DNA of 64,000 nt from an uncultured Verrucomicrobiae bacterium (GTDB lineage Bacteria; Verrucomicrobiota; Verrucomicrobiia; Chthoniobacterales; UBA10450). Made by a program: the position numbers and the translations under genes. This document shows positions 802-63,107 of the stretch, piece after piece. Location: assembly GCA_963726745.1 (NCBI GenBank), contig CAVSDR010000003.1, forward strand, positions 320,001 to 384,000, given 5' to 3'. The notes beneath the pieces are model-generated. The model ran no database searches, was not told where the DNA came from, and saw only the letters and a program-made list of their open reading frames with translations. Positions within the stretch are counted from its first letter, which is position 1. Every line of letters begins with the position of its first letter.

Positions 802-3363
802 ATGCCGAAGTTCCTAACCTATAACGTCGTCCCGAATCTCCCCGCCGCGCTCGAGCCTCTGCGCGAAATGGTCTTCAACGTCTGGTGGACTTGGGAGCCC
901 TCGGCGCGCGCGCTTTTCCGCCATCTCGACCCCGAGCTCTGGGAGCGAACGAATCACAACCCGGTGCGCATGCTCCAGCTCTCACGTCAGGCGCGCCTGA
1001 CCGAGGTGGCGCAGGACGACGATTTCCTGCGCGAACTGAAGGCAGTCCACACCGCGTTCAAGAAATATCTCGCGCGCAAGGACACCTACGGAAAGACCGG
1101 CGCGGGCAAGGTGCTGAAGAAGCCGGTGGCTTATTTCTCGGCCGAGTTCGGCTTCCACGAATCGATCCCAAACTACTCGGGTGGCCTTGGGATTCTCTCG
1201 GGCGATCATTGCAAATCAGCCAGCGATTTGGACCTGAACTTTGTCGCCATCGGCCTGCTCTATCGGCACGGTTATTTTAAGCAGCAGATTGATCGCGACG
1301 GCGTGCAGCACGCGGAAAGTCTCAATCAGAACTTCCACCATCTCCCGATCCGGGAAGTGCGGAAGGACAATGCCCGTGTGCTCGTCTCGGTGCGCATTCT
1401 CGAACGCGAAGTGCTGGCTAAAATCTGGGAACTGCGCGTCGGCCGGATCACGCTTTATCTGCTCGATACCGACGTGGCCGAGAACTCGCCGGAAGATCGC
1501 CTGATCACCGCGGAGCTCTACGGCGGCGACCTCGAGATGCGCATCCGCCAGGAGATGATCCTCGGCATCGGCGGCGCGCGCGCTCTCGGGGCGCTCGGGA
1601 TCGACGCGCAGGTTTACCACATGAACGAAGGCCACTCGGCCTTCCTCGCGCTCGAGCGCATCCGGCAACTTCACACCGAGAAAGGGCTCGATTTTTACGC
1701 CGCCCTCCAGCTCGTCGCAGCTTCGAATGTTTTCACCACGCACACCCCGGTGCCCGCGGGCAACGACGCTTTCCCGCGCGAGCTCATGCGAAAATACTTT
1801 GGCGATTTCGCCAAGGAAATGGGCATCCCCTTTGACGAACTTTTCACCTTCGGACAGACGCGGGTGAACCCGAGCGATCCCTTCAGCATGACCATCCTCG
1901 CCCTGCGCGCGAGCCGGCACGCGAATGGCGTGAGCGCGCTCCATGGCGACGTCAGCCGCGGCCTTTGGAAAGATGTCTGGACCGGCGTGCCAGTGGGGGA
2001 AGTGCCGATCACCAGCATCACCAACGGCATCCACACCAAGACCTGGATGGCGCCGGAATTCTCTGCGCTCTACACGAAGTATCTCGGCGATTGGGAGGAG
2101 AACCTTACCGACGCCGATTTCTGGCGCGGGGTGATCGACATCCCGGACGCGGAGCTTTGGGAAACGCACCAAAAGCTCAAGCTGCGGCTGGTGAATTTCG
2201 TCCGGGCACGCGTGCGCGCACGCCGGGTGCGCATCGGCGATTCGCCGGAAGCGATTCGGCGCGCAAACAGCATTCTCGATCCGGAGATTCTCACGATCGG
2301 TTTCGCCCGGCGCTTTGCGACCTACAAGCGCGGCGCGCTCCTTTTCAGCAACCGCGAACGCCTCGCGAAGCTCTTGCATGACAGCACGCGACCGGTGCAA
2401 TTCATCTTTGCCGGCAAGTCGCATCCGCGCGACGAAGGCGGCAAGGCGCTCATCCAGGAAGTCTACAAATTCTCGCGCGAAGAAGGCTTCGAGAACCGGA
2501 TCGTTTTCGTGGAGGACTACGACACCTACATCGCGCGCCGGCTCGTCCAGGGCGTGGATCTTTGGCTGAACAATCCGCTCCGCCCGCTCGAGGCCAGCGG
2601 CACCAGCGGGATGAAGTTGCCGCCTAATGGCGGGCTCAACCTCAGCGTGCTCGATGGCTGGTGGTGCGAGAGCTACAACGGCAAAAACGGCTGGGCCATC
2701 GGCGAGGAAATCCTCGACGGCTCGGTGGAATTCCAGAGCGAAGTCGACTCCACCAGCCTCTACCAATTGCTCGAGAACCAGATCATTCCGCTCTACTACG
2801 CGAAGCCCGACGGCAAGCTCCCGCTCGCCTGGCTTCAGCTCATGCGCGAGTCCATCCGCAGCGTCACCCCGGTCTTCAACACCCACCGGATGGTCTCGGA
2901 ATACACCGAGCGCCTCTACGCGCCCGCGCTCAAGGCGCACCAGGAATTCGCCGAAGGCAATGGCCGCGCAGCCACGGAGTTGAGCCAATGGAAGGCGCGC
3001 ATCCGGCAGGATTGGCCGCAGGTGCGGATCTACGACGTGCAGGTGGGGAACGAAAACCGCCACAACATCCTCGTGGGCGACGCGCTCAAAGTGTCGGCTA
3101 AAATTCATCTCGGCGCGGTCGACCCGCAGCACGTGCGCGTGGAGGCCTACTACGGCGAGCCGGGGAAAGACGACGTCGCGAACGTCTCGCGGCCCGCGAT
3201 CGCCGTGCTCCAGCAGAATGCCCACCAGGCGAACGGCCACTACTTTTACGAAGGTGAAGTCCCGGCCAGCGAAAGCGGGACCTACGCCTTCAGCGTGCGC
3301 GTGGTCCCGACACATCCACATCTCATGCAAGGCCACGAGCTGCGGTTGATCACCTGGTCCTAA
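802..3363 (+). CDS. glgP: Alpha-glucan (glycogen) phosphorylase, DUF3417-type N-terminus
   Basis: YFSAEFG, YSGGLGILSGDH, HMNEGH, FTTHTPVPAG, GFARRFATYKR and the PLP motif EASGTSGMK; 853 aa. Confidence 0.96.
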   Translation: MPKFLTYNVVPNLPAALEPLREMVFNVWWTWEPSARALFRHLDPELWERTNHNPVRMLQLSRQARLTEVAQDDDFLRELKAVHTAFKKYLARKDTYGKTGAGKVLKKPVAYFSAEFGFHESIPNYSGGLGILSGDHCKSASDLDLNFVAIGLLYRHGYFKQQIDRDGVQHAESLNQNFHHLPIREVRKDNARVLVSVRILEREVLAKIWELRVGRITLYLLDTDVAENSPEDRLITAELYGGDLEMRIRQEMILGIGGARALGALGIDAQVYHMNEGHSAFLALERIRQLHTEKGLDFYAALQLVAASNVFTTHTPVPAGNDAFPRELMRKYFGDFAKEMGIPFDELFTFGQTRVNPSDPFSMTILALRASRHANGVSALHGDVSRGLWKDVWTGVPVGEVPITSITNGIHTKTWMAPEFSALYTKYLGDWEENLTDADFWRGVIDIPDAELWETHQKLKLRLVNFVRARVRARRVRIGDSPEAIRRANSILDPEILTIGFARRFATYKRGALLFSNRERLAKLLHDSTRPVQFIFAGKSHPRDEGGKALIQEVYKFSREEGFENRIVFVEDYDTYIARRLVQGVDLWLNNPLRPLEASGTSGMKLPPNGGLNLSVLDGWWCESYNGKNGWAIGEEILDGSVEFQSEVDSTSLYQLLENQIIPLYYAKPDGKLPLAWLQLMRESIRSVTPVFNTHRMVSEYTERLYAPALKAHQEFAEGNGRAATELSQWKARIRQDWPQVRIYDVQVGNENRHNILVGDALKVSAKIHLGAVDPQHVRVEAYYGEPGKDDVANVSRPAIAVLQQNAHQANGHYFYEGEVPASESGTYAFSVRVVPTHPHLMQGHELRLITWS

Positions 3364-3378: not shown

Positions 3379-4527
3379 ATGCCTGACCTCCCCCCAGAGG
3401 AACAAAACCCGGCAGCCCCCCGGCGCCGGACACTCACGCCGGAGCAGCGCAGCTTCCTGGGCACGCCGCGCAAAAGCTCCGAGCCGGCGCGCGAGTCGCC
3501 GACACCGGCGCCGGAGCGGCCCGCGAGTTCTCCGAAGGAAGCAACGCCTTCGCATCCGGCCGAGCGCCGGTCTCACTCCTCGCCGGGCGGCCGCGTCCCG
3601 CCGCAGCCGCAGGCCCAGGCGCGCACGGAGCAATCGCGCGTGGTCGAATTGCAAACCGCGATCTACGTCCTGGGCGGCCTCCTGGCTCTCGGAATGATCT
3701 TCTACGCGGGCTTGAAATTCGACGCGGTGAAGTATCACCTGCTCACCCGCATCCGCGGGAGCGAGCAACTCGAACGCGGACCGGATAAATATCCCGGGCT
3801 CTCGAGCGACGAGTTGCTCGAGACCGCGCTCGCCGCGGAAAAGCGCGGCGACTGGAAGGAAGCCACCGACCGCATGATCGCGGCCAAGCAAAAGGATCAC
3901 GCTTTAGCCGGCGTGCTCTTCCGCGTGGGCAAGGGCAGCTATGAGCGCGGCGATTTCGAGGGTGCCGCGGTCGCGCTCGAGCATGCGATTCGCTTGGGCG
4001 AAAACCTGGCCGCGGCGAACTATTATCGCGGGTTGATCGCGGCCAAGCGCAAAGACCTGGCCGCGGCCGCGGGCTACTTCGAGGCGGCCACCAAAGCCGA
4101 CCCGTTCGTCGCCGACTACTTCTATTTTTGGGGCGAAGCCTTGCGGCTGGATCAACGTCCGCGCGAAGCCATCCGGCGCTACCAGCAGGCGCTCGAACGC
4201 ACTCCCGGCAGCGCCGATGCCGAGCTGTGCCAGTTCAAGATTCGGCTGGCGCGCATCGAAGCGGCCGAGGTGCCGCAAGTCGCGGCCGACGTGGCCGCGG
4301 CGCGCGCGGCGGGGCCGCTTTCCACTTCCTGGCTGCTGACAGATGCGGCACTGCAACTGCACGCGGGCCGGATAGCCGAGGCCCGCCAACTGATCGATGA
4401 CGCCCGCGCTGCCAGCGCCAGCCAGCTTTTCCTCACCTGCGTGAGCGACAACGTCTTCCTGCGGGCCGCCGAGGCTCATCCGGAAATAGCCGCCGCCCTC
4501 CGGCCCGCGCCCGCGCCCGCTCGTTAG
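3379..4527 (+). CDS. Membrane-anchored TPR protein
   Basis: Pro-rich N-terminus, one TM helix, TPR-like helical repeats. Confidence 0.8.
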   Translation: MPDLPPEEQNPAAPRRRTLTPEQRSFLGTPRKSSEPARESPTPAPERPASSPKEATPSHPAERRSHSSPGGRVPPQPQAQARTEQSRVVELQTAIYVLGGLLALGMIFYAGLKFDAVKYHLLTRIRGSEQLERGPDKYPGLSSDELLETALAAEKRGDWKEATDRMIAAKQKDHALAGVLFRVGKGSYERGDFEGAAVALEHAIRLGENLAAANYYRGLIAAKRKDLAAAAGYFEAATKADPFVADYFYFWGEALRLDQRPREAIRRYQQALERTPGSADAELCQFKIRLARIEAAEVPQVAADVAAARAAGPLSTSWLLTDAALQLHAGRIAEARQLIDDARAASASQLFLTCVSDNVFLRAAEAHPEIAAALRPAPAPAR

Positions 4528-4573
4528 GCGCAGGCATGAGAAGATAAGCGAGCCGCAGCCTGATCCAGCCCGA

Positions 4574-15150: not shown

Positions 15151-16674
15151 TCAGGCAATCGCTTCAAGCACGCGCCAGAATTCTTCCAAGGTTCCCTCTT
15201 CGCGAATGGCGCGATTGAGGGCGTCGATCCGCTGGTCGTCCGCCGCCTCTGGCAGCGGAACACGTCGAGCGCTGCGGCCGTTCCTCCGAAAAACGATCTC
15301 GTCCCACTGGATAGATTCAATTTCACGATTGAACCTGGCCACCGCGCGGCCGCGGAAGAAAGCGCGGGTGGTCTCGGGCGGGGCGAAGATCGCGGCGCGG
15401 ATTTCGTTTTCCTCGACCACGCGGCGCATCGTCCCCTGCCGCTCGAGTTCGTAGAAGAGCCCGGCGTCGGGCTGGATGTTGTGATACTCCAGATCGATCG
15501 CCTGCAGCCACGGATCACTCCAGCTCAGTTTTTCCTCCTCCTGGAAAGAGGTGAGGAGAAACTTCTTCGCCACCCAGTCGACACGATCTCTCGTTAGGCT
15601 AACGTCGCGTTCGAGGTCGTGGAGCACGTTCTCCCACTCGCGTAGCAGCCATGCGGTCTCTTCCTCCGCCGCCCGCTCGCTCTCCTGCGCCGCGCGAAGA
15701 TAAAGGCGCTGCACCTCGATCGCGGAAATCTTCCGCCCGTCGCGCAGCTCGATGATCCAATCATACGTCTGGTCGCGGCTGATCGACTTGAGCGCCTCGA
15801 CCGGCTGGGCGATTTCGATCTCGGGCGCGTTCCCGTTTTCGATCAAGTCAAGCACGAGCGCCGTCGTGCCAATCTTCAGCGCGGTGGCCCATTCGCTCAT
15901 GTTCGCGTCGCCGATGATCACGTGGAAACGGCGATACTTCGCGGCGTCGGCATGCGGCTCGTCGCGCGTGTTCACCAGCGGGCGCTTGTTCATCGTGTCG
16001 ATGCTCACGAGCACGCTGAAGAAATCCGAGCGCTGCGAAATCTGGTAGACGCCCGGCTGGCTGGCGGCGCTCTCGACTTCGATCCCCATCTTGCCGGCTC
16101 CGGCGAAAATTTGCCGCGTGATCAGAAACGGGAGCATCCCCGCGACCACGCGATTCCACGGGACGTCACGGCGCATCAGGTAATTATCGTGGCAGCCGTA
16201 GCTGTGGCCGACGAAGTCGGTGTTGTTCTTGTAAAGCCGCAGTTCCTGCTCGGGCGGCAGCTTCTCGTTCCGCCGCCGGGCGCACTCCGCGAGCACCCGC
16301 TCGCCGGCTTTATCGTGGGCCACGAGCTCGCGCAGGGTGGTGCACTCCGGCGTGGAATATTCCGGATGCGCGTGGTCGTTATAAAAACGGGCGCCATTCG
16401 AGAGCACGAGGTCGCTCTTGATTTCCTGGAAACTGAGCGGGCGGTTCTGGTCGATTTCAAAATAGGCGGACTCGTCCGTGTCCTGGAGCAGCTCCTTCGC
16501 CCGAAAACCGCGCGCGTCGCGGTGCGGATCTTCCAGCGCGTAATCCCACTTCATCAGCGCGCCGTGTTCCGTGTAGGAACGCACCAGCTCGATCGATTCG
16601 GCCACGACATCGAGCGACTCGGCGCCGTTGATCGTGATCCCGTATTCCGTCTCAATCCCAAAGACGCGCTTCAT
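15151..16674 (-). CDS. dop: Dop-like deamidase/depupylase (PafA2 family) of the Pup/UBact system
   Basis: GIETEYG, Dop-loop WDY..EDPHRDARGF, NGARFYNDHAHPEYSTPE, KNNTD..GHSYGCHDNYL, RPLVNTRDEPHA, RRFHVIIGDAN. Confidence 0.92.
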   Translation of the reverse strand: MKRVFGIETEYGITINGAESLDVVAESIELVRSYTEHGALMKWDYALEDPHRDARGFRAKELLQDTDESAYFEIDQNRPLSFQEIKSDLVLSNGARFYNDHAHPEYSTPECTTLRELVAHDKAGERVLAECARRRNEKLPPEQELRLYKNNTDFVGHSYGCHDNYLMRRDVPWNRVVAGMLPFLITRQIFAGAGKMGIEVESAASQPGVYQISQRSDFFSVLVSIDTMNKRPLVNTRDEPHADAAKYRRFHVIIGDANMSEWATALKIGTTALVLDLIENGNAPEIEIAQPVEALKSISRDQTYDWIIELRDGRKISAIEVQRLYLRAAQESERAAEEETAWLLREWENVLHDLERDVSLTRDRVDWVAKKFLLTSFQEEEKLSWSDPWLQAIDLEYHNIQPDAGLFYELERQGTMRRVVEENEIRAAIFAPPETTRAFFRGRAVARFNREIESIQWDEIVFRRNGRSARRVPLPEAADDQRIDALNRAIREEGTLEEFWRVLEAIA

Positions 16675-21389: not shown

Positions 21390-22052
21390 GTGCGCTGGTT
21401 CCATCTCGCTGTCTGTTTTGCCAGCACTCTCTGCGCGCAGGAAGAAGCGCCCTTGAAGACCACGGAGGATCGGCTGGCGGAATTCGGCGACGCGGTCCGT
21501 GCGCGCCTCGAGCCGCAATTCCGCGCGGCCGGGATCGCTTATCCGCCCACGCAAGTGATGCTCATCGGTTTGAAAGCCGAGCGCGTGCTCGAAGTGCACG
21601 CGCGCGACGCGGACAAAGATTTCCGCCTCGTCTGCCGCTACCCGATTCTCGCGGCCAGCGGCGGCCCCGGGCCGAAGCTGCGCGAAGGCGATCTGCAAGT
21701 GCCGGAAGGCTCCTATGCGTTGCGGGAATTGAACCCGAACAGCCGCTTCCACCTCAGCCTTTGGATCGATTATCCCAACGCCGAGGAAAGCGCGCGCGCC
21801 GCCGCCGAAGGGCGCGATCCCGGCGGCGAGATCATGATCCACGGCGGCCACGAGTCGCGCGGCTGCCTCGCGCTGGGCGATCCCGCGGCGGAAGATCTCT
21901 TCGTGCTCGCGGCGCTTACCGGAATCGAAAACGTCCGGGTGCTCCTCGTTCCGCGCGACTTGCGTTCGTTAGGCGGCAAGCTCTCGCCCGCGGAGGAGAT
22001 CCTGCGCGCCGAACTGCAGCGCTTCCCCGCGGCTCAAGTTTCGAGCAAGTGA
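21390..22052 (+). CDS. L,D-transpeptidase (YkuD) family protein
   Basis: GPKLREGDLQVPEG.Y, NPNSRFHLSL.IDYPN, IMIHGG..SRGC catalytic His/Cys. Confidence 0.9.
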   Translation: MRWFHLAVCFASTLCAQEEAPLKTTEDRLAEFGDAVRARLEPQFRAAGIAYPPTQVMLIGLKAERVLEVHARDADKDFRLVCRYPILAASGGPGPKLREGDLQVPEGSYALRELNPNSRFHLSLWIDYPNAEESARAAAEGRDPGGEIMIHGGHESRGCLALGDPAAEDLFVLAALTGIENVRVLLVPRDLRSLGGKLSPAEEILRAELQRFPAAQVSSK

Positions 22053-24193: not shown

Positions 24194-24251
24194 GCCTGCG
24201 AGCGTGCGAAGAAGCGCCGGCCGGCGCAACCAGAAAGCGTCGGCTCTTTGC

Positions 24252-38357: not shown

Positions 38358-38368
38358 CGAGTGCCGAG

Positions 38369-44968: not shown

Positions 44969-46537
44969 ATGCCCGGTTCGCTTGCGCTGATCCTGCACGC
45001 GCACCTGCCGTTCATCCGGCACCCGGAGCACGAGGAGTTTCTCGAGGAAGCCTGGCTTTTCGAGGCCATCACCGAGACTTACATCCCGCTCATCCAGATG
45101 ATGGAGCGGCTGATGGCGGACGCGGTCCCCTTTCGGCTCTGCATGAGCCTCACGCCGCCGCTCTGCGCGATGCTCCAGGACGAACTCCTGCGTGAGCGCT
45201 ACGCGCAACATCTCGCGCGCTCGATCGACTTGGCCGAGCGCGAAATTAGCCGGCATTCTCAGCACCCAGAACTGCTCGAGCTGGCGCATTTTTACCACGC
45301 GCTTCTGCGCGAGACGCAGCGGCGTTACGAAGCGTGGAATCGCGACCTTGTCGCCGTCTTCCGCCAACTGCGCGATGCCGGCGTGCTCGAAATCATCGCC
45401 AGTGCGGCGACGCACGGGTTGCTGCCTTTGCTGATGGAAACGCCCGCAACCGTGCGTGCGCAAATCCTCATCGGCTGCGATGCCTACCGCGCCGCGTTTG
45501 GCGCGGAGCCGAGTGGTTTTTGGCTGCCGGAATGCGCTTACGCGCCCGGCCTGGAGAAAATGCTCGCGGAGGCGAACCTGCGCTGGTTCGTGCTCGACGC
45601 GCATGGCCTCATGCTCGCGCAACCACGCCCCGCGGCGGCGATCTTCGCGCCCGCATTCACCGCGGCCGGCCCGGCGGTTTTCGCGCGTGACCCGAATAGC
45701 AGCCGGCAAGTTTGGAGCGCCGAGGCCGGCTATCCGGGACATTCGGCCTACCGGGACTTTTACCGCGACGTCGGCTACGATCTCCCGCCGGAGTATGCCT
45801 TCGCGCACTCAGCGCAAAAACAGCCGCGCTTCACTGGTTTTAAGTATCACCGCATCACCGGCGGCCGCGGGCCGAAGGAATTTTACCAGCGCGCTCAGGC
45901 CGAGGAAATGGCGGCGACGCACGCGAGCCATTTTCTGAAAGCGCGCACGCAGGAGCTGGAAGCTGCGGCCGAGCTGGTGCTCGACCCGATCCTGACAATG
46001 CCGTTCGACGCGGAGCTTTTCGGGCATTGGTGGTTCGAAGGTCCGCTCTTTTTGGAACAGGTCATCCGGCAAAACGCCGCCAGCGGGACGCTCCGCCTAA
46101 CGAGTCCAACGTCCTACCTGGCGACGCATCCGACGCAGGAAGTGGTCGCGCCCGCCGCCTCGAGCTGGGGCGAAGGCGGCTACTGGAGCGTCTGGTTGCA
46201 CGAGAATAATTCGTGGATTTATCCGCCGCTCCATCGCGCCGCGCGCGAAATGCACGCCCTCGCGCAGGCCCACGCGGAAACAGCCGACCATTTGATCGAC
46301 CGCGCGCTCAAGCAGCTCGCGCGCGAACTCCTGCTCGCGCAGTCGAGCGATTGGGCTTTCCTCATGAAAACTGGCACCGCCCGGGAGTACGCCACCAGCC
46401 GCACCGAAACGCACCTCCGCCGTTTCCAAGAGCTCGGGAATCAGCTAAAGGCAGGCAGCCTCGACCCGGTTTTCCTTTCCGAATGCGAAACGTGCGACAA
46501 CCTTTTCCCCCAAATCCAATGGCGCCATTACGCTTAA
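44969..46537 (+). CDS. GH57 1,4-alpha-glucan branching enzyme (DUF1957)
   Basis: LHAHLPF, EEAWLFEAITETYIPL, FWLPECAY, FDAELFGHWWFEG, RELLLAQSSDWAF. Confidence 0.93.
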   Translation: MPGSLALILHAHLPFIRHPEHEEFLEEAWLFEAITETYIPLIQMMERLMADAVPFRLCMSLTPPLCAMLQDELLRERYAQHLARSIDLAEREISRHSQHPELLELAHFYHALLRETQRRYEAWNRDLVAVFRQLRDAGVLEIIASAATHGLLPLLMETPATVRAQILIGCDAYRAAFGAEPSGFWLPECAYAPGLEKMLAEANLRWFVLDAHGLMLAQPRPAAAIFAPAFTAAGPAVFARDPNSSRQVWSAEAGYPGHSAYRDFYRDVGYDLPPEYAFAHSAQKQPRFTGFKYHRITGGRGPKEFYQRAQAEEMAATHASHFLKARTQELEAAAELVLDPILTMPFDAELFGHWWFEGPLFLEQVIRQNAASGTLRLTSPTSYLATHPTQEVVAPAASSWGEGGYWSVWLHENNSWIYPPLHRAAREMHALAQAHAETADHLIDRALKQLARELLLAQSSDWAFLMKTGTAREYATSRTETHLRRFQELGNQLKAGSLDPVFLSECETCDNLFPQIQWRHYA

Positions 46538-47697
46538 TTCTCGTCGGTCTCCTGTTGGCGCTTCCCGTCCGCGCGCAGGAAACGCCCGCGCCTTCCGCGA
46601 GCCCGACGCCGCGCAAGGTGCGCATCAGTTTTCTCCCGCCGCCGGTCGACGGGCTGATCAGCCTCGGGATTTACGACCGCGACGGGAAGCTCGTGCGCGT
46701 GCTTCAGCGCGAGGCGGAACTGGAAGAATTCGAGGCCGGGAACGATGCCTTACAGACGGCTTGGGATGGAAAAAACGACGCGGGCGAGCCGCTGCCTTCG
46801 GGGAAATATTTCGCGCGCGGTTACGCCGTCGATGCGGACGCAGAAGGTGTCGGCTATTTCTTTAACGACTGGGTCGAGGACGAAAACTCCCTGCGGATCG
46901 CGCGGGTGACCGCGGTCGAACTCGCGAATGGCCTCCCGCTCTTGAGCGTGCAGCTGGCCGATGGCCGTGCCCTTTCGATCCTCTGCGATTTAGACGGCAA
47001 CATCATGAATACCGGCGAGGTGCGCACCCGCCAGGAGGATTGCGGCGAGGCGCTTTCCTGCGCTCCCGGCCGCGAGGAAACGCGCTGGGTGATCGAGCAG
47101 GTTTCGCCCGAAGCAACTGAGGTGAAGCAGCTCTCGAAATCCGGCGAGCTCCTCCGCCGCTTGAGCGTGCCCGCGGGCGAACCGCAGCCGCGCCAGCTCG
47201 CGGCCTCGCCGGACAGCGACTCGATTCTTCTCTTGGAAGAGAACTCGCAGGCGCAGCGCGTGCGCTCGTTAGTCCTCGCGGGCAAGAACATCACCGATGG
47301 CCAGGCGACCTCCGATTGGAAAGTGCAATTCGAGAAAACCATTACTGCGCACCATGACTTCACGATGGAAAAGGGCGAGCCGGTGCCCGCGGGCGGGACG
47401 CCTCTGCTCGAGAAAATAGCCGTCAAGCTGCAGCCAAATCCGCTGGCGAAAAACCAACGCACCACCGTCGAGCTTACGGTCGCCTTCGACGCCGACGGCA
47501 GCTTTCTCCGGACCGCCGATGGGCTTCCACTCCTTAGCATCAGCGAAACGAAAAAGCTCCAGCGCATCGGCCTCGCGCCCGCGGGTGAAAACGCCGCCGA
47601 GGTGCTTCAGGACGACGGCGTGGTGGTCGAGCAATTTCACCTGACCGATCTCGCGAAGATGGCGGCCTTCGACGCGGGCGAAATTGAATTGAAATAG
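46519..47697 (+). CDS. Secreted hypothetical protein with a FlgD Ig-like N-domain
   Basis: Signal peptide; LGIYD..GKLVR.L...WDGKNDAGE.LPSGKY. Confidence 0.75.
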   Translation: MAPLRLILVGLLLALPVRAQETPAPSASPTPRKVRISFLPPPVDGLISLGIYDRDGKLVRVLQREAELEEFEAGNDALQTAWDGKNDAGEPLPSGKYFARGYAVDADAEGVGYFFNDWVEDENSLRIARVTAVELANGLPLLSVQLADGRALSILCDLDGNIMNTGEVRTRQEDCGEALSCAPGREETRWVIEQVSPEATEVKQLSKSGELLRRLSVPAGEPQPRQLAASPDSDSILLLEENSQAQRVRSLVLAGKNITDGQATSDWKVQFEKTITAHHDFTMEKGEPVPAGGTPLLEKIAVKLQPNPLAKNQRTTVELTVAFDADGSFLRTADGLPLLSISETKKLQRIGLAPAGENAAEVLQDDGVVVEQFHLTDLAKMAAFDAGEIELK

Positions 47698-49680: not shown

Positions 49681-50455
49681 ACGCGCCGCAAATCCATCCG
49701 ACGGCGATCGTCGACCCGGGCGCGGCGCTCGGGGCGGGCACGGTGGTGGGGCCTTACAGCATCGTCGGCCCGCACGTCATCCTCGGCGAAGGTTGCTGGC
49801 TGCAACATCACGTGACCCTGGAGGGCCCGATGATCGCGGGGGCGCATAACAAGTTCTACGCCTACTGCTCCATCGGGCAGCAGACGCAGGATTTGAAATA
49901 CGCCGGGGAACCGACCTATCTCGAGCTCGGCGAGGCGAACGTTTTTCGCGAGTTCTGCACGGTCAACCGGAGCACCAAGGGCGATGGCAAAACCCGCGTC
50001 GGCAGCCGTGGAAATTTTCTCGCCTACAGCCATATCGGGCACGATTGCCTCGTCGGCGACGGCGTCGTTTTCTCGAACAACGGCACCCTCGCCGGCCACG
50101 TCCAGATCGGCGACGGCGCGATCATGGGCGGCCTGACCGCGGTCCATCAATTCTGTCGGATCGGGCGGCTCGCGATCACTGGCGGCTGTTCCAAGATCGT
50201 GCAGGACGTGCCCCCGTTTATGATCGCCGATGGCAACCCGGCGCAGATTCGCGGGGTTAACGTCGTCGGTCTCGAGCGGGCCGGCTTCGCACCTGCCGCG
50301 ATCAAGTGCATCAAGGAAGCTTTCCGCCTGATCTTTCGCTGCAACTACAACACCCGCCAGGCGCTCGAAGCGGTGCGCGCGGAAATGCCGCAGACCGACG
50401 AGATCGCGCAAATCGTGGCCTTCATCGAAGCAGCGAGCGCGGGATCATTCGTTAG
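49677..50455 (+). CDS. lpxA: UDP-N-acetylglucosamine O-acyltransferase (1-nt deletion near 50432)
   Basis: IHPTAIV, QDLKY.GE.T, AYSHIGHDC, LAGHV, VHQFCRIG; restoring one base gives the canonical end SERGIIR*. Confidence 0.95.
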
Positions 50456-50456
50456 G

Positions 50457-52043
50457 CTAACGGGGCGTGGCCGCCGGCGCCGGCGTGGGATTCAAGTCCT
50501 GCTCCACTTTTCGCAGGAGAGCGCTCGCGGGAGCGTTGGGCACGATCCGCAGGACGCTGCGGACCACGTCGAGAGCGCGCTTCGGTTTCTCCTGGCCGAT
50601 CCAGGCCGCGGCTTCCTCCAGGACTACGCGCAGGATGTCGTCGCGCTTCGCATACATCGCGCGCGCTTGTTGGAAGTAACTCGTGGCCGCGGCGAAGTTT
50701 CCCTCACGCGCTTCCATCCCGCCGAGGTCCTCGATCATGGCCGCGTTCCGCCCTTTCGAGGCCGCCGCACGCGCCGCGGCGCGATACTCCGCCGGCGGCA
50801 GGGTGGCATTCTGGACCGCAAAGTTATGATACATTTTCCAATCAGGCAGGTCGCCGGCTTTGGATGTTTCGCGTTTCGGTTCGAGCCTCAACCACGCGGC
50901 ATACGGCCGGTAAAGCGGATCGCCCACCATCACCGTCATCCAGGAAAGCGCGGGCGTGGCCATGTAGGCGCTTTCCGCAAAGGTAAAGCCGTGCAGCAGG
51001 CGGTCGTTGAACAGCTCGAGGTGCGTCGTGAGCTGGAGGAACGGCTCGTAGACGTTGCCTAACGAGACCGCCGCCCCCTTGGTCAGGAGCGGCGCCACCC
51101 AATTCGCGTTTGGGTCCCGCAGGGTGCTGGCACTGAAGGAATGGATGTGCACTGCAACCGCCCCGGGAAGAAAACGAAAATCCGCGTCGCTGAAAGCGCC
51201 GGCTATCCCGGCGGCATACCAGCCGTAATACAAGGCGCAGTCGGTAATCGGGTAGCCGTTCGGGAAGATTGCCGGCGCGTTGTCATAGACCGTCGGAATG
51301 CCCGCGGCCCGCAGCCCGTCGACCACGCTCGCGAGCCAGCGATCGCCAATCTCCAAACCATTGGCATGATTCTGCGCCCCATCGACGAATCCCCGCCCCC
51401 AAAGCCCGTTCTTCTCAGTCTCCATCGCATCAGTGATCATCCGGCGCACCGTCGCCGCGGTAGGCGCGTCCAGCCGGCAAACGAGCAGCAGCGCCGGGTC
51501 CGTCTCTTCGGTCACGCTGCGGTAGCTCTGGAAGTAGGGATTGTTAGCCGCGCCGGAGATCTGGCGCGTGTTCACTCCCAGGATGGCCAACTCGGAATCG
51601 ACCGAGGCATCGTTGCGGCTGCCGATCGGGCCGCCTTGGTTGACGTCGCCTTCGTAGGCCTCGGCCTGCCCGCGAATCTTCAAGGGCATCCCCTTCATCA
51701 GCGCGACGAAGCGGATCGTGCTCGCGTCCACCCGCGGCCGTCCGTCGGGCCCGTCGCGAAAGCTCCACCAACGCCGCTCGCGAAAGAGCCCGCGCAGGGG
51801 CGCGGCCAGGGTGCGGTCGTACTCTTCGCGCGAGATTTCCTCCGCGGTCGAACAGGAAACGCCGACCACATGGTCGCGCGCGATCCCGCGTTTCTGCGCG
51901 TAAAATTTGGCCAGCTCGGCCGATTCCGTGCTCGCCTGATTGTAGATCACAACGGTGGCTGCGGCCAGGTCCTGCGCGCGGAGATTGCTCGTTAGGCCAG
52001 GCGCCGCGAGCAGCGCCACGAGGAAGAACGCCGGGAAGCGCAT
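50457..52043 (-). CDS. TIGR03790-family protein (PEP-CTERM-associated)
   Basis: VVIYN...S.ELA.FYA.KRGI, ASVDSELA, LVCRLDAP, YYGWY, PGAVAVHIHSFSA, GNVYEPFL, VGDPLYRP. Confidence 0.85.
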   Translation of the reverse strand: MRFPAFFLVALLAAPGLTSNLRAQDLAAATVVIYNQASTESAELAKFYAQKRGIARDHVVGVSCSTAEEISREEYDRTLAAPLRGLFRERRWWSFRDGPDGRPRVDASTIRFVALMKGMPLKIRGQAEAYEGDVNQGGPIGSRNDASVDSELAILGVNTRQISGAANNPYFQSYRSVTEETDPALLLVCRLDAPTAATVRRMITDAMETEKNGLWGRGFVDGAQNHANGLEIGDRWLASVVDGLRAAGIPTVYDNAPAIFPNGYPITDCALYYGWYAAGIAGAFSDADFRFLPGAVAVHIHSFSASTLRDPNANWVAPLLTKGAAVSLGNVYEPFLQLTTHLELFNDRLLHGFTFAESAYMATPALSWMTVMVGDPLYRPYAAWLRLEPKRETSKAGDLPDWKMYHNFAVQNATLPPAEYRAAARAAASKGRNAAMIEDLGGMEAREGNFAAATSYFQQARAMYAKRDDILRVVLEEAAAWIGQEKPKRALDVVRSVLRIVPNAPASALLRKVEQDLNPTPAPAATPR

Positions 52044-52893: not shown

Positions 52894-54549
52894 ATGCCCG
52901 CCGTCCTCCAGCTCCTGCGCATCAAAAACCTCGCGCTGGTCGAAGACCTCCAGTGGCAGCTCGGCCCGGGCTTTACCGCGATCACCGGCGAGACCGGCGC
53001 GGGCAAGTCGATCATCATCGGCGCGCTCCAGCTCTTGTTAGGCGAACGCGCCGACAAAACGCTCATCCGCACCGGCGCGGAGCTCTGCACGGTCGAAGCG
53101 GTCTTCGAGGGCGCGGAGCTGCGGAAATTAAACAGCAAGCTGGAGGAAGCGGGCGTGGAACCGTGCGAAACCGAGCTGATTTTGAAGCGCTCGCTTTCCG
53201 CCAGCGGGACGAACCGCCAGTTCATCAACGGCTCGCCGACCACGCTCGCCGTCTTGAAGTCGTTAGGCGACGAATTGGTCGATCTCCATGGCCCGCACGA
53301 TCACCAGTCGCTCCTCTCGCCGGAGCGGCAGCTCGGGTTGCTCGACGCCTTTGCGCACGCGGAGACGGCGGAGTTCTCCGCGAAGTTCCGCGCGCTTCAG
53401 GCGCTGGTCGCGGAGCGCGAGACCTTGAGCACGGCGGAGTCGGCGCGGGCGCAGGAGCTGGATTTGTTGCGCCACCAGGTCGCGGAAATCTCCAGCGCCA
53501 ACCTCGCCCCGGAGGAGGAAGCGGAGATCGAGGCGCGCTACAAATTAGGCAGCAACTCGAAGCGCCTGATCGAGCTGGCCAGCGCCGTGGCCACGCGTTT
53601 GACCGAGGCAGACGACGCCATCGTCGCGCAACTCGGCGAGACGCAGCGTTTGTTGCGCGAGCTGGAAAAGATCGACCCGGAAATCGCCGACCTCTCCGCG
53701 GCCCACGCCGCGAGCGTGACCGAGCTGGGCGAGATCGCGCGCACCTTGATCCATTATGCCGACAAGCTCGACCTCGACCCGGCGCAGCTGAGCGCGCTCG
53801 AGCAACGCGTCTCGCTTTTCGAGACGCTCAAGCGCAAATACGGCGCGACCTTGCCGGAAGTGATCGCGTTTGGCGACGCCGCCGCGGAGCGGATGCGCAA
53901 GATCGAGGGGCGCGACGAGGAATTGGAACGGCTCGCGGGCGCGATCGCGCAGGCACAATCGGAGGTGAAACGCGCGGGCGAAGCGCTGCATAAGCTGCGG
54001 GCCAAAGCCGCGCCGAAGTTGTCGGCTAAAATTCGCGAGAACCTGCGCGACCTCGGTTTTCGACAATCGGAGTTCGAGGTGAAACTGGAGTCGTTAGGCG
54101 AGCCAAACCTCCGGGGCTACGACGCGGTCGAGCTGCTCTTCTCCCCCAACCCCGGCGAACCGCTCAAGCCGCTGCGCAGCATCGCTTCCAGTGGCGAAAT
54201 CTCGCGCTTGATGCTCGCAATCAAGGGCGCGCTCGCGGCGCAGGATGCGATTCCGCTGCTCGTCTTTGACGAGATCGACGCCAACGTGGGCGGCGAAATC
54301 GCCAACGCCGTGGGCGCGAAGATGCGCGCGCTCGCGGAGGAGCATCAGGTGCTTTGCATCACCCACCTGCCGCAAGTCGCAGCCGCGGCCAGCGCGCATT
54401 TTGTGGTTACCAAGGAAGTCGCCGGTGGCCGCACGTACTCCGAGTTGCGCGAGGTCACGAGCAAAGCCCGCCGCGAAGAAATCGCGCGCATGCTCGGGGG
54501 CGCGAGTGAATCCGCCCTGCGCCACGCGGCCACGCTCCTGAAAGCCTGA
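52894..54549 (+). CDS. recN: DNA repair protein RecN
   Basis: ITGETGAGKS, HGPHDHQ, ASSGEISRLML, FDEIDA, ITHLPQVAA, EEIARML. Confidence 0.97.
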   Translation: MPAVLQLLRIKNLALVEDLQWQLGPGFTAITGETGAGKSIIIGALQLLLGERADKTLIRTGAELCTVEAVFEGAELRKLNSKLEEAGVEPCETELILKRSLSASGTNRQFINGSPTTLAVLKSLGDELVDLHGPHDHQSLLSPERQLGLLDAFAHAETAEFSAKFRALQALVAERETLSTAESARAQELDLLRHQVAEISSANLAPEEEAEIEARYKLGSNSKRLIELASAVATRLTEADDAIVAQLGETQRLLRELEKIDPEIADLSAAHAASVTELGEIARTLIHYADKLDLDPAQLSALEQRVSLFETLKRKYGATLPEVIAFGDAAAERMRKIEGRDEELERLAGAIAQAQSEVKRAGEALHKLRAKAAPKLSAKIRENLRDLGFRQSEFEVKLESLGEPNLRGYDAVELLFSPNPGEPLKPLRSIASSGEISRLMLAIKGALAAQDAIPLLVFDEIDANVGGEIANAVGAKMRALAEEHQVLCITHLPQVAAAASAHFVVTKEVAGGRTYSELREVTSKARREEIARMLGGASESALRHAATLLKA

Positions 54550-59246: not shown

Positions 59247-60428
59247 ATGATCCAGCGCGACTATCTCATCATCGGCGGCGGCATTGCCGGCGGCAGCGTA
59301 TGCGAAAGCATCCGCAAATACGACAAACGCGGATCAGTCACGCTCGTGGGCGCGGAAGCTTTCCCACCTTACAAGCGCTGGATGCTCTCGAAGAGCTTCC
59401 TGCGCGAGAAAGTCCCGCCGACAAAGAAGCTCCCGCACCTCGACGCGCAGTGGTACAACACTCACAAGATCGAGGCCCGCTTCGGCACCGTGGTTACGCA
59501 GTTAAACATCGACCGCCGCCTGGCCGTGCTCGGTAACGGCGAGACGATCGAGTTCAACAAAGCTTGCCTCGCGATGGGCAGCCGCCCGTTGCGTCCACCA
59601 GTGGCCGGCGTCGGTCTCGGCAATGTAATTTACCTGCGGACGACGCGCGACGCCATGGCCCTGCGGGAAATGGCGAGCCTCGAGAAAATGATCGTGGTCG
59701 TGGGCGGCGGATTGCTCGCCTGCGAGGTCGCCTCAAGCCTCAAGCAGCTCAAGTTCAAGGTGAGCATGATGCACCGGAACGCGTTTCTCCTGAATCGCTA
59801 CCTCGACCGCGAGACCGGCGACTGGCTTACCGGCTACTTCACGAAACACGGAGTCAGCCTCTTGTTAGGCGAAAGCCTTAACGGCTTCGAAGGCAAAACC
59901 GTCCTGCGCAACATCCAGACAAAGAGCGGCAACCGCGTGGCCGCCGGCGTGGCCGTAGTTGCATGCGGTTCCGAACCGAACCTCGAGCTCGTGCGGAACA
60001 CGCCGCTTTCCGGCCCGCACGGTTCACCCGTAAGCGAGTATCTCGAAACCGAGGAAAAGGGCATCTATGCCGTGGGCGATCTCGCTTTCTACCCGGACCG
60101 TTTAATGGGCGGCATGCGCCGGCAAACGCATTGGGAAAACGCGCGCGAGCAAGGCTTGGTCGCGGGCGCAAACATGACCGGCAAGAAACGCATCCGCTAC
60201 GAGCAAGTGCCGAACTTCTGGACGGAGATGTTCGATCTGCGACTGGACTTTGTCGGCGACTTCAGCCTTCCCGCGGGACGCCTCGCGACCACCGGGACGC
60301 ACGCGAAAAAGAAGTTCACCACCCGCGGCTACCAGGGCGACAAACTCCGTTCCATCCTCCTGTGCAACGGCACGCCGAAGGAAGTGGAAGCGGCCAAGAC
60401 GGAATTGCGCACTGCGCTCGGGAAGTAA
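59247..60428 (+). CDS. FAD-dependent pyridine nucleotide oxidoreductase (ferredoxin-reductase-like)
   Basis: IIGGGIAG, PY.R..LSK, VVVGGG, IYAVGD, HWENA..QG..AG.NM, VP.FW. Confidence 0.9.
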   Translation: MIQRDYLIIGGGIAGGSVCESIRKYDKRGSVTLVGAEAFPPYKRWMLSKSFLREKVPPTKKLPHLDAQWYNTHKIEARFGTVVTQLNIDRRLAVLGNGETIEFNKACLAMGSRPLRPPVAGVGLGNVIYLRTTRDAMALREMASLEKMIVVVGGGLLACEVASSLKQLKFKVSMMHRNAFLLNRYLDRETGDWLTGYFTKHGVSLLLGESLNGFEGKTVLRNIQTKSGNRVAAGVAVVACGSEPNLELVRNTPLSGPHGSPVSEYLETEEKGIYAVGDLAFYPDRLMGGMRRQTHWENAREQGLVAGANMTGKKRIRYEQVPNFWTEMFDLRLDFVGDFSLPAGRLATTGTHAKKKFTTRGYQGDKLRSILLCNGTPKEVEAAKTELRTALGK

Positions 60429-60452: not shown

Positions 60453-63107
60453 ATGCGTTGCTTCCGTTTAGCCGGCATCTTCTTGCTCTCGTTAGGCCTT
60501 TCGCTCCATGCGGAAGAGCCGTTCGACTTCGCAAAAACCCCCGGCAAGCTCCCGAAAGGGGTCGTGCCGCGGGAATACGCCGTTCGCATCGCGCCCAATC
60601 TCAAGGCGCTCACTTTTCTGGGCGAGGAAACCATCCAGCTCGAAGTTCGCCAGCCGGCACGTGAGTTGATCCTAAACGCGCACGAGATCGAGGTGGCGAG
60701 CGCGGCGGTTGACGGCGAGGCCGTCGCGGCGGACGCGCTCAAGCTCGACCCGCAAGCGCAGACGCTCACGATCTCGCTGCCTCGCGAACTGCCGGCCGGT
60801 GCGCACAAGCTCGCGCTAAAGTTTAGCGGCAAGATCAACGCCAGCGGCCAGGGCCTTTACCATGCGCCCTACACGGAGACCGGCAGCGGCGCGAAGAAGG
60901 ATATGCTCGGGACGCAGTTCGAGGCGACGGACGCACGCCGAATGTTTCCCTGCTGGGACGAGCCGAGCTTTCGCGCGCGCTTCCAGCTGACCGCCGTCAT
61001 CCCGTCGAATTGGAAAGCCTTCTCGAACATGCCCGTGGAGCACGAAGCCACGACCCCGGCGGGCAAGGAGGTCCGCTTCGCCATGACTCCGCCGATGGCC
61101 TCCTACCTGAACGTCCTTTGCGCCGGCGAGCTTGACTCGATCGAGAAGCAGCAAGGTGAGGTCCTGCATCGCGTCGTCGCGACCAAAGGGAAGGCTGCGC
61201 TCGGTCAATATGCGCTCGCGAGCGCGCAACAAATCGTCGGCTATTACAACGACTACTTCGGCGTCCCCTTCCCTTTGCCGAAGCTGGACGAGATCGCGGT
61301 GCCCGGCGGTTTTGGCGGCGCGATGGAAAATTGGGGCGGCATCACCTATTTCGAGAGCGCGCTGCTCTACGATCCCGAAACCTCGTCGAGTGCGACGAAA
61401 AAAGGAATCTACGCGGTCGTGGCCCACGAAATCGCGCACCAGTGGTTTGGCGACCTTGTGACCATGGCTTGGTGGGACAATCTCTGGCTTAACGAAGGCT
61501 TTGCCTCGTGGATGGGGAGCAAGTGCACCGCGAAATTCAATCCCGACTGGGAGGTCTGGCTGGCGAGCGATGCGCCGCGCGACCCGACGCGGCGGCGCGG
61601 CATCCCGAAGGAAACGGCGATGGAAGGCGATGCCCGCTCAACCACTCATCCGATCCAGCAGGAGATCAAGACCGAGGCTGATGCCAGCGGTGCCTTTGAC
61701 GACATCACCTACAAGAAAGGCCAGTCCTTCCTGCGCATGCTCGAGAGTTTCCTCGGCGAAGATGTTTTCCGGGCCGGCATTCGCCAATACATGGCGCAGC
61801 ATCAGTATTCCAACACGACCACGGCGGATCTCTGGCGCGCGCTGGGCGACGCTTCCGGCAAGCCGGTGGTCGAGATCGCGGCCGAGTGGACGCAGCAGCC
61901 CGGCTTTCCGCTGGTAAAAGTCGCGCGCGGAACAGACGGCAAGATCACCCTTACGCAGGAGCGCTTCACGGTGAACTTCGCGAACCCGCCTGCGCTCCAA
62001 TGGAAGATTCCGTTGACCTACAAAGTCGCCGGCACAGACGCGCCGGTGAGCCTCTTGATGAGCGACCAAACCCTCCAGCTCCCCGAGGTGCCGGACGCCC
62101 GCGCGATCAAGTTGAACGTCGAAGGCACCGGCAACTACCGGGTGCAATACGACGACCGCTCCTGGGAACTGTTGCTCGCGCAGTTGCCAAACATGAGCAG
62201 CCCGGACCGGGTGAATTTACTCAGCGACACCTGGGCCCTGGTGCAGGCGGAACGCGCGCCGCTGGCACAGTATTTCGCGCTGATCGAGAAACTGCCGACG
62301 CGGACCGAACTGGCGGAACAGGAGCAGATCATCACCGCTTTTGGTTTCATCGATGGTCTGGTCGCAGGACAGCCGGCGCAGGACCGATTCGAGGAATACG
62401 CCCGCTCCGTCTTGCACCCGGCCTTTGCCCAGCTCGGCTGGGAAGCGCGCCCGGATGAGAGCAGCCGCGCGACGACGCTGCGCGCCAGCTTGGTGAGCGC
62501 GCTGGCTCTTTTTAACGACCCGGAAATCATCGCCGGCTGCAACGAGCGTTTCCGCGCTTTTCTGAAACAACCGAAGTCGCTCTCGCCCGACCTGCGCGGA
62601 CCAGTCTTGAACGTTGTCGGCCGTTATGCCGATGAGAAGACGTGGAACGAACTGCACGCCCGCGGCCTGCGCGCGACCAGCCTGGAGCAGAAGCAGGATT
62701 ATTTCGGCGCGCTCGCCGAGGCCCAGGATCCACAGCTTGCGCAGAAGGCGCTGGCCCTGGCTTTGACCGACGAACTGCCGACGAGCCGCGCGCTTTCGCT
62801 CGTGCCGCGAGTGGCGCGGAGCGGTCATCCCGAGCTTGCGTGGAAGTTTGCCCGCGCGCACATGCCGGAGCTGCTGAAGAAAGCGGATGCGCTGGCGGCA
62901 AACAGTTTTGCGCCCAGCCTCTTCACCTTCTTCTCCGATGAGGCGATGGTCGGGGAACTGAAGAGCTATGCGCAGCAGAAGTTGTCGCCTGATTCCGCCA
63001 AGCCGGTGGAAAAAGCCGTCGACGAAATGACTTTTCGCGCACGTTTCAAGGAACGATTGCTCGCGCAACTCGCCCAGGCGCCGGCCTTGAAAGCGGCCCG
63101 CGACTAG
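60453..63107 (+). CDS. M1-family aminopeptidase (secreted, ERAP1-like C-domain)
   Basis: TQFE..DARR.FPCWDEP, GAMENWG, HEIAHQWFG, WLNEGFA, YKKG. Confidence 0.96.
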   Translation: MRCFRLAGIFLLSLGLSLHAEEPFDFAKTPGKLPKGVVPREYAVRIAPNLKALTFLGEETIQLEVRQPARELILNAHEIEVASAAVDGEAVAADALKLDPQAQTLTISLPRELPAGAHKLALKFSGKINASGQGLYHAPYTETGSGAKKDMLGTQFEATDARRMFPCWDEPSFRARFQLTAVIPSNWKAFSNMPVEHEATTPAGKEVRFAMTPPMASYLNVLCAGELDSIEKQQGEVLHRVVATKGKAALGQYALASAQQIVGYYNDYFGVPFPLPKLDEIAVPGGFGGAMENWGGITYFESALLYDPETSSSATKKGIYAVVAHEIAHQWFGDLVTMAWWDNLWLNEGFASWMGSKCTAKFNPDWEVWLASDAPRDPTRRRGIPKETAMEGDARSTTHPIQQEIKTEADASGAFDDITYKKGQSFLRMLESFLGEDVFRAGIRQYMAQHQYSNTTTADLWRALGDASGKPVVEIAAEWTQQPGFPLVKVARGTDGKITLTQERFTVNFANPPALQWKIPLTYKVAGTDAPVSLLMSDQTLQLPEVPDARAIKLNVEGTGNYRVQYDDRSWELLLAQLPNMSSPDRVNLLSDTWALVQAERAPLAQYFALIEKLPTRTELAEQEQIITAFGFIDGLVAGQPAQDRFEEYARSVLHPAFAQLGWEARPDESSRATTLRASLVSALALFNDPEIIAGCNERFRAFLKQPKSLSPDLRGPVLNVVGRYADEKTWNELHARGLRATSLEQKQDYFGALAEAQDPQLAQKALALALTDELPTSRALSLVPRVARSGHPELAWKFARAHMPELLKKADALAANSFAPSLFTFFSDEAMVGELKSYAQQKLSPDSAKPVEKAVDEMTFRARFKERLLAQLAQAPALKAARD

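Follow-up and report, generated by a model that had tools for sequence, protein, structure and literature searches.

Why should a single ten-base word recur, on both strands and inside genes as well as between them, throughout a stretch of bacterial chromosome? The question is raised by 64,000 nucleotides of DNA from an uncultured bacterium, the whole stretch that we analyzed and hereafter call the window (G000:C3:320001-384000). G000 denotes the source genome, which comprises 3,406,779 bases in 7 contigs at 64% GC. The word, CTCGTTAGGC, is termed word A; its core is TCGTTAG, its informative part is TCGTTAGGC, and the spellings GCCTAACGA and CGTTAGGC are used for the same word. Word A is real and hyper-abundant, is imposed on DNA and not on protein, is non-polar and self-spacing, is scarce in atypical DNA, turns over between species, and is confined to one family. 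From these properties we tentatively favor, with considerable reserve, the explanation that word A might be a family-specific self word kept up by molecular drive, like an uptake sequence and most similar to the DNA uptake sequences (DUS) of Neisseriaceae and the uptake signal sequences (USS) of Pasteurellaceae.

The original prediction, made from the letters of the window, had counted 11 exact copies of word A, and all 11 were recovered at the same coordinates and on the same strands. Dinucleotide shuffling gives an expectation of 0.08 copies, with 0 of 100 shuffles reaching 11. When one mismatch or fewer is allowed, the count rises to 26 against 3.25 expected, a set that includes all 13 one-mismatch copies that had been claimed and two copies of CTTGTTAGGC (53034 and 59861). 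The tallies of shorter words agree as well: the core TCGTTAG occurs 27 times (17 on the plus strand and 10 on the minus strand; 2.71 expected), and the hexamer CGTTAG occurs 31 times (13.1 expected), with 27 of the 31 being core sites that carry the preceding T.

Throughout the source genome, word A ranks first among all 10-mers. Its 820 copies (375 plus, 445 minus) in 3.41 Mb amount to one per 4.1 kb, and the runner-up 10-mer has 519. The core is found 2025 times, or once per 1.7 kb, and TCGTTAGGC 1312 times. Counts of single-base variants in G000 reveal that positions 1-7 (TCGTTAG) are near-invariant, such that most core variants have only 0-12 copies. The exceptions are the change of C to T at the CpG (CTTGTTAGGC, 93 copies, versus 0 copies of the opposite-strand product CTCATTAGGC), A to C at position 6 (28 copies), and T to C at position 1 (18 copies). 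Position 0 is variable (C 820, G 237, T 226, A 29), and positions 8-9 are intermediate. Around the 820 genomic copies, no flanking position exceeds 0.34 bits; there is a faint tendency towards A at -1 and towards A/T at -4, and otherwise only a three-base ripple that reflects coding sequence. The possibility that word A is part of a longer element, such as a repetitive extragenic palindromic (REP) sequence, a miniature inverted-repeat transposable element (MITE) or another dispersed repeat, was therefore rejected, as the flanks carry no information beyond this codon-period ripple.

Genes were called with a crude filter that retains open reading frames (ORFs) of at least 80 codons with the highest GC content at third codon positions (GC3), and these calls cover 81% of G000. 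By this rough measure, 615 copies of word A lie within genes, 58 span a gene boundary and 147 are intergenic. Shuffling synonymous codons within genes leaves a mean of 8.8 copies (20 shuffles, range 4-15). The 615 copies observed in coding sequence thus represent a 70-fold excess, and the predicted surplus over a codon-aware null holds genome-wide. Coding copies are distributed over all four stop-free frames, where they read S-L-G (326 copies), P-N-E (124), L-T-S/R (102) and L-V-R (63). The original prediction had listed two further frames in which the word reads into a stop codon; the four open frames are confirmed, whereas the two stop-reading frames have 0 copies inside gene calls.

The demands of the word on coding sequence are considerable. 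It had been proposed that word A forces the otherwise rare leucine codons TTA and CTA, and we find that 634 of the 2782 TTA codons and 298 of the 1356 CTA codons in G000 belong to the core. Among 715 SLG tripeptides, 422 are spelled TCGTTAGGC, where codon usage predicts 0.6%. Even the proteome is bent: SLG occurs 715 times versus 442-467 expected (1.5-1.6x) and PNE 230 times versus 91-94 expected (2.5x), with the reversed tripeptide controls GLS and ENP at expectation. A conserved peptide or codon usage as the cause of word A is rejected by the use of four frames together with the synonymous shuffle. These same observations, along with the confinement of the word to one family (see below), bear out the proposal that the signal acts on DNA in a frame-independent and lineage-specific manner.

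The distribution of word A along the chromosome is equally distinctive. Chi sites and FtsK orienting polar sequences (KOPS) are strongly strand-polarized with replication. For word A, the locally G-rich strand has 418 copies and its C-rich counterpart 402 (51.0% on the former, p = 0.6), and the core divides 1016:1008, as judged with a modest proxy for polarity, since GC skew is weak in G000 and genes are not co-oriented with skew (51%). On long G000 contigs with uniform skew, the strand split of word A is at most 58:42. The expectation of a non-polar signal on both strands, unlike Chi or KOPS, is thus upheld.

Copies also keep their distance from one another. Relative to a Poisson expectation, gaps between cores are deficient below 25 bp (9 versus 30.1), at 25-50 bp (11 versus 29.6), at 50-100 bp (24 versus 57.9) and at 100-200 bp (64 versus 110.8), corresponding to ratios of 0.30-0.58 below 200 bp, and they are in excess at 400-800 bp (460 versus 338.9). 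The relative orientation of adjacent cores is random. Only 44 of 2018 neighbor gaps are shorter than 100 bp, roughly half of these pairs being inverted, such that inverted pairs are rare, and a scan of pair geometry in G000 revealed no preferred pair spacing of word A. At the opposite extreme, 7 core gaps exceed 12.8 kb versus 0.9 expected, and the longest include low-GC stretches. Cores become denser with increasing GC content, numbering 0-2.4 per 10 kb where GC is 56-60% and 7.0-7.3 per 10 kb where it is 64-68%, despite the fact that word A is AT-rich for G000. In the window, an 11-kb core-free stretch (4530-15590) holds accessory-looking genes, for a tetratricopeptide repeat (TPR) regulator, a trypsin-like protease, and Kelch and beta-helix proteins; the sole criteria for “acquired” DNA were GC content and the genes within this one gap. 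Copies do occur in genes with housekeeping functions, among them that for the Pup ligase and those of the nusA-infB-ribF block.

The source genome belongs to a family of uncultured soil Chthoniobacterales near Ca. Udaeobacter, and it is to this family that word A is restricted. Within the genus, 18 of 18 sampled species have more copies (51-1404) than of the reversed-word control. For 80 further genomes of the family (36 genera), 44 carry at least 100 copies, with a maximum of 1549, and the reversed control never exceeds 57; a few genera of the family are without enrichment. Twelve sister families have 0-14 copies, and CGTTAGGC is above its reversed control in 0 of 199 other Verrucomicrobiota genomes representing 56 other families, where it is usually far below the control. 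The unpublished genomes G001, G008, G032, G036, G043 and G113 enter only as rows of the count table, and no conclusion rests on them; the count for G001 is high too. The base at position 0 also differs between genomes, as G056, from a sister genus, commonly has the variant TTCGTTAGGC. The congener G002 has a low count, and a k-mer scan of 360 kb of it found no replacement word; of its over-represented 8-mers, TCGTTAGG still ranks first, albeit weakly (22 versus 3 expected). In this G002 sample, the 12-mer GCGGAATGCGGA recurs to a mild degree (12 copies, versus 2 in all of G000), and there are short tandem arrays of units such as CTTCCTACTTCC. As a separate observation, the few word A copies of G022, a member of a sister family, cluster at intervals of ∼400-900 bp on one strand of contigs C7, C13 and C21, in a manner that resembles a local repeat.

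Individual sites turn over rapidly. At orthologous places where one species has word A, others carry synonymous or nearly synonymous spellings that are 2-6 bases different, for example CTC GTC CGG in place of CTC GTT AGG. An alignment of nusA-infB from 76 sequences contains 12 site columns with a total of 32 occurrences, and each site is common to at most 6 species. Sharing of motif sites in this small sample of 32 occurrences is 0.019-0.12, compared with 0.155-0.27 for random 7-mers. We found no close strains of the source species from which gains and losses could be counted, as the best NusA identity was 93% among genome records and 91% among metagenome contigs.

Word A is not the only such word in the family. 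Word B, TGTCGATCTT, came to light when k-mers were counted in 328 kb of G063, which belongs to the family but lacks word A; it occurs there 77 times versus 2.8 expected. At least 300 copies are present in 27 of 80 family genomes, with a maximum of 4653 in the 2.9 Mb of G056, whereas the reversed control gives 0-4. Word B reaches a density of one per 0.6 kb, is read in all six frames, and has 22 copies in G000. Both A and B are found in many family genomes. A sample of 313 kb from G056 contains 318 A cores and 538 copies of B; there, each word avoids its own kind below 200 bp, and A does not avoid B, which is found within 50 bp of 19.4% of A sites versus 13.3% of random points. Tight pairs of B have a characteristic geometry: 27 of 28 in G056 are same-strand tandems 15-16 bp apart, and public loci provide 21 more pairs, 15-17 bp apart.

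Word C, WWW-TTAGCC-RRC-NNN-TT, is enriched only in the source species among 114 family genomes. Its 14-position pattern occurs 463 times in G000, whereas 80 family genomes have 0-42 copies and the remaining 33 species of the genus have 1-29, with the highest outside count, 42, in the unpublished G036; it is found twice in 2.07 Mb of 160 related loci. The shorter form TTAGCCRRC has 1139 copies in G000 (575/564). About three quarters of the copies of word C are in genes, in all six frames. Its spacing is nearly random and shows no avoidance of A, and the inverted pair GGCTAA-A-TTAGCC (offset 10) occurs 7 times in G000. Words A and C share TTAG yet are distinct, with hybrids at ∼0.25-0.3 of the expectation for independence. 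Words B and C are no obvious dialects of A, and they coexist with it. A 225-kb stretch of another family member, G053, yielded no hyper-abundant word at all, and this word-free relative serves as a natural control. G000 also over-represents the tandem-like GTTGGCGTTG (178 versus 6.7 expected) and TTAGACAGC (122 versus 2.6).

Table 1. Copies of word A, its core and word C in the window. Readings are given in one-letter amino acid code.
Feature	Coordinates	Strand	Remarks
Exact word A	4520..4529	+	overlaps end of ORF 3379-4527 (TPR protein)
Exact word A	15590..15599	+	antisense to Pup-ligase gene; there reads L-T-R (CTA ACG AGA)
Exact word A	24250..24259	-	gene sense strand; reads L-V-R (CTC GTT AGG)
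Exact word A	24730..24739	+	gene boundary (crude gene calls)
Exact word A	29924..29933	+	antisense to glycosyltransferase (PMT_2) gene; reads P-N-E (CCT AAC GAG)
Exact word A	30746..30755	-	sense strand; reads S-L-G (TCG TTA GGC)
Exact word A	38352..38361	-	near ribF start; orthologous place in G013 has the word, in G002 has 2 mismatches
Exact word A	46095..46104	-	antisense to gene; reads L-T-S (CTA ACG AGT)
Exact word A	51057..51066	-	sense strand; reads S-L-G
Exact word A	51988..51997	+	antisense to gene; reads L-T-S
Exact word A	60488..60497	+	sense strand; reads S-L-G
One-mismatch word A, CTCGTTAGGA	3358..3367	-	core intact
One-mismatch word A, CTCGTTAGCC	19259..19268	+	core intact
One-mismatch word A, CTCGTTAGCC	19723..19732	-	
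One-mismatch word A, TTCGTTAGGC	21965..21974	+	
One-mismatch word A, CTCGTTAGGG	27468..27477	+	
One-mismatch word A, CTCGTTAGCC	30502..30511	-	hybrid with word C (TCGTTAGCCGAC)
One-mismatch word A, CTCGTTAGCC	33542..33551	+	within nusA
One-mismatch word A, CTCGTTAGTC	36304..36313	-	
One-mismatch word A, GTCGTTAGGC	38192..38201	+	
One-mismatch word A, CTCGTTAGTC	47265..47274	+	
One-mismatch word A, TTCGTTAGGC	50448..50457	+	
One-mismatch word A, CTTGTTAGGC	53034..53043	+	C to T at CpG; commonest core variant genome-wide by far (93 copies)
One-mismatch word A, GTCGTTAGGC	53259..53268	+	
One-mismatch word A, GTCGTTAGGC	54090..54099	+	
One-mismatch word A, CTTGTTAGGC	59861..59870	+	
Additional 7-base core TCGTTAG	25519..25525	+	
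Two facing cores (TCGTTAG at 29664 + and 29675 -)	29664..29681	.	rare inverted pair
Word C, 14 copies	1413, 3093, 3904, 16872, 20797, 22532, 22773, 30499, 32777, 39427, 42424, 45246, 54021, 60468		

Candidates for proteins that might read these words were sought in G000. The genome encodes competence hardware that includes ComEC (an 849-amino-acid open frame), DprA, a weak ComEA-like helix-hairpin-helix protein, 3 secretins and 10 PilB/PilT-type ATPases, as well as 18 candidate pilin-like proteins, 16 of which are over the cut-off. The competence and type IV pilus genes that the original prediction had suggested looking for are thus present, but such genes are widespread and do not discriminate. 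ComEC presence was dropped as a correlate of word density because 78 of 81 family genomes have the gene, leaving no contrast. A solitary 540-amino-acid C5 DNA methylase is encoded directly downstream of the gene for S-adenosylhomocysteine (SAH) hydrolase; it was rejected as the driver of word A, being found in 13 of 81 family genomes and not following the word. An N6_N4 methylase and type I fragments are also present, and the type I methylase locus looks broken. An integron integrase as reader was likewise set aside, as none scores above the cut-off in G000, where the best match to TIGR02249 is Xer-like and has 80 bits versus a cut-off of 265. The recombination protein RecC (PF04257) was not found in this 94.7% complete genome, in which AddAB and AdnAB were not searched for.

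Two of these loci have irregularities of their own. The SAH hydrolase gene (G000:C5:211000-214100) appears split into overlapping frames (28-489 and 434-1357 of the locus), which might reflect a frameshift or an assembly error. At G000:C4:371200-373000, the type I methylase gene (HsdM) is apparently split in two frames and is followed by a 120-amino-acid fragment that matches DarT, a toxin that ADP-ribosylates thymidine in single-stranded DNA.

How might so many copies arise and persist? A sequence-specific reader on the DNA-uptake route, perhaps a component of the type IV pilus or a DNA receptor in the periplasm, would favor word-bearing fragments; the receptor of the Neisseriaceae DUS is ComP, a minor pilin. 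Homologous recombination of the favored fragments would then spread word-bearing alleles, and the word would accumulate by molecular drive at permissive places, such as silent sites, tolerant amino acid positions and spacers. A second copy close to an existing one would bring no gain. Two points here are inferred: the action of the reader during uptake, and the maintenance of the copies by drive in place of selection at each site. This explanation is ranked first because no established mechanism other than uptake bias combined with recombination drives every position of a word at once, and because the worthlessness of a second nearby copy fits the near-neighbor deficit. Indeed, the DUS- or USS-like behavior that was originally proposed is borne out in every genomic property measured, namely strand balance, lack of polarity, coding and non-coding sites, effects on the proteome, even spacing, scarcity in atypical DNA, restriction to one family, and the presence of competence genes.

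Several observations nonetheless weigh against an uptake tag. Sites of word A in nusA-infB are kept less often than random 7-mers at 75-80% identity (58/1034 versus 28944/150112, with only 32 occurrences), and word A sites are not retained for long at a single place. Several hyper-abundant words exist independently in one genome (A and C in G000, A and B in G056) with no mutual avoidance, which a single receptor with one specificity does not predict. The fixed geometries of the B tandems and the inverted C pairs look more like cooperative protein binding than like anything described for DUS or USS. Moreover, ComEC is present in genomes that lack the word (G053, G036 and G069), and it appears split in two genomes that are rich in word B (G035 and G073). 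A search of IMG/VR for two 9-mers 400-430 bp apart returned 12 contigs, and 11 of these represent chance pairs. The remaining one, a viral contig of 67% GC, is truly dense in GTTAGGC, with 28 copies in 20.4 kb (of 46 kb), or one per 0.7 kb; 23 of the copies are on one strand, and they are without the TC prefix. This contig fits a tag that is read inside the cell at least as well as a tag read during uptake. The crude gene calls and the modest polarity proxy noted above also count here, as does the uncultured state of the lineage.

Two other models, each of which we consider unlikely, stay in play because independent words coexist, because pairs of B and of C adopt fixed geometries, and because one viral contig is dense in GTTAGGC. 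In one, a cytoplasmic nuclease, helicase or defense system spares or processes word-bearing DNA, by the logic of Chi without the direction of replication, such that tagged DNA, whether own or incoming, survives and recombines better. Independent words that each space themselves and ignore the others would be expected if several readers each had their own tag, and the differences in words between species, with C in the source species only, match the pace at which defense specificities change. The apparently broken ComEC of two B-rich genomes and the viral contig are likewise consistent with this model, and the seven-base core is within the size range of known Chi sites. However, known Chi sites have a strong skew, are built of common codons and exceed expectation only mildly, whereas word A lacks polarity and forces rare TTA and CTA codons; the failure to detect RecC and the chance nature of 11 of the 12 viral matches also argue against the model. 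Alternatively, the words could be binding sites for abundant sequence-specific nucleoid or architectural proteins that organize the chromosome, with each lineage having its own protein-word pair. Exclusion of copies of the same kind at 25-200 bp, but not of other words, would be understandable on this basis, and the pair geometries suggest cooperative or dimeric binding. The portion of PMC5861425 consulted notes that a nucleoid role has been proposed for the highly iterated palindrome (HIP1) of cyanobacteria. Yet selection per site would be tiny when distributed over ∼2000 sites, and the word nonetheless overrides codon usage and alters amino acids. Rapid site turnover between species and the absence of a preferred pair spacing for word A itself are also difficult to accommodate, as is G053, which manages without a hyper-abundant word in the 225 kb sampled.

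Other explanations fare worse. It is improbable that word A is a by-product of a DNA methyltransferase and biased repair, as was once argued for HIP1, in which near-cognate mismatches are corrected towards the recognition sequence. The sole abundant core variant is the C-to-T change at the CpG, and its strand asymmetry (CTTGTTAGGC versus CTCATTAGGC) fits methylation of cytosine on one strand; G000 does have the solitary C5 methylase beside SAH hydrolase, and HIP1 is tied to two methylases in the sections of PMC4390886 and PMC13756078 available to us. Nevertheless, the C5 methylase does not track the word, word A is not palindromic, all ten positions and not one are driven, and repair that acts site by site does not predict a near-neighbor deficit. 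A polar signal read by replication-linked repair or FtsK, akin to Chi, KOPS or architecture-imparting sequences (AIMS), is close to refuted by the even division relative to GC skew, the random orientation of neighbors and the failure to find RecC. The density of the 10-mer does resemble that of Chi in E. coli, and contigs with uniformly negative skew (C3, C4 and C6) sum to 288 plus and 345 minus copies, a slight excess of 54.5%. Finally, chance, codon usage, a conserved peptide, a dispersed repeat or an assembly artefact can be regarded as refuted by the shuffle nulls, the use of four open frames, flanks that lack information, and the occurrence of word A in more than 100 independently assembled genomes and metagenome contigs; nothing beyond the mild preference for the S-L-G frame speaks for any of these.

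A broader version of the self-tag explanation is possible, although we consider it rather doubtful. The family might run a multi-word self-tag system with three or more unrelated words, presumably recognized by a separate reader in each case, in which A is family-wide, B serves other genera and C a single species. Such words would arise, coexist and be replaced on the time scale of genera and species, and the core of A may even be shared with a virus. If this is true, the system would constitute the first sequence-specific DNA uptake outside of Proteobacteria and cyanobacteria, with several specificities per cell, or alternatively a novel way of telling self from non-self that is inscribed in coding DNA.

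To our knowledge, hyper-abundant self words have been known from only three lineages, Neisseriaceae, Pasteurellaceae and cyanobacteria. Those three cases shaped ideas on why bacteria take up DNA, on species boundaries, and on selfish sequences that rewrite proteins, and a fourth would lie in one of the most abundant uncultured lineages of soil. Our full-text literature search found no description of word A or B as a bacterial signal, with matches that looked like primers as judged by title, and it revealed nothing relevant on DNA uptake sequences in Verrucomicrobia or, among the 15 matches listed first, on competence in Udaeobacter. What is new, then, is uptake-sequence-like behavior in a new phylum and the coexistence of several words, B and C included. 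With three words that are independent of one another, a relative that has none, and densities higher than in any described case, it should be possible to find the reader by phylogenetic profiling. Word A would also provide a marker with which native DNA can be told from acquired DNA in genomes of the family. Word-bearing DNA may also transform better, as reported for HIP1, and this could make the lineage genetically accessible. Annotation of these genomes and models of their codon usage call for caution, since about a quarter of TTA and CTA codons in G000 belong to word A.

Each of the known systems that word A brings to mind differs from it in some respects. GTTAGGC, the last seven bases of word A, fits GTTRRRY, the core-site consensus of integron attC and attI sites. 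However, copies of word A are single and not arranged as paired inverted boxes 50-120 bp apart, apart from a handful of such pairs, and G000 has no integrase match above the cut-off. With Chi and KOPS, which are read by DNA-processing machines, word A shares the character of a short over-represented chromosomal word at similar density, but it lacks their polarity, and G000 lacks a detectable RecC. HIP1 (GCGATCGC) is a closer parallel, as the passages of PMC5861425 and PMC13756078 at hand describe it as 15- to 300-fold hyper-abundant, present inside and between genes, and of long unknown function. More recent work connects it with natural transformation and puts it forward as an uptake recognition sequence (PMC5861425, PMC13756078 and bioRxiv 2024.09.10.611283, each as far as the accessible text goes). 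Word A is similarly hyper-abundant in and between genes and is family-wide with exceptions, where HIP1 is phylum- or family-wide. In contrast, HIP1 is palindromic, is recognized by two methylases and has sites that are conserved between genomes, whereas word A is non-palindromic, is not tracked by the C5 methylase tested, and has sites that turn over and are shared less than random 7-mers.

The strongest resemblance is to DUS and USS, for which the part of PMC1939737 that we consulted describes copies that are evenly spaced and unbiased in orientation, 35-65% of which fall in reading frames, with totals of 1471 and 1965 per genome. Excerpts of PMC1939737, PMC2397512 and PMC2817400 add that these sequences are enriched in the core genome and absent from acquired genes, and PMC2397512, again in part, that new copies are too diverged from their homologues to have arisen by single point mutations. 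Word A occurs in a different phylum, in uncultured bacteria. Unlike in those systems, inverted pairs acting as terminators are rare for word A, two or three unrelated words coexist per genome without mutual avoidance, and word B, at one per 0.6 kb, is denser than the published counts in the consulted part of PMC1939737. Nonetheless, like DUS and USS, word A is short and non-palindromic, with hundreds to thousands of copies divided equally between strands and no replication polarity. It lies in several frames of genes and in spacers, and it distorts codon use and the proteome. Its copies are also less clustered than random placement would give, atypical DNA has few of them, and the word is restricted to one family, within which sister genera can favor a position 0 variant or carry a different word.

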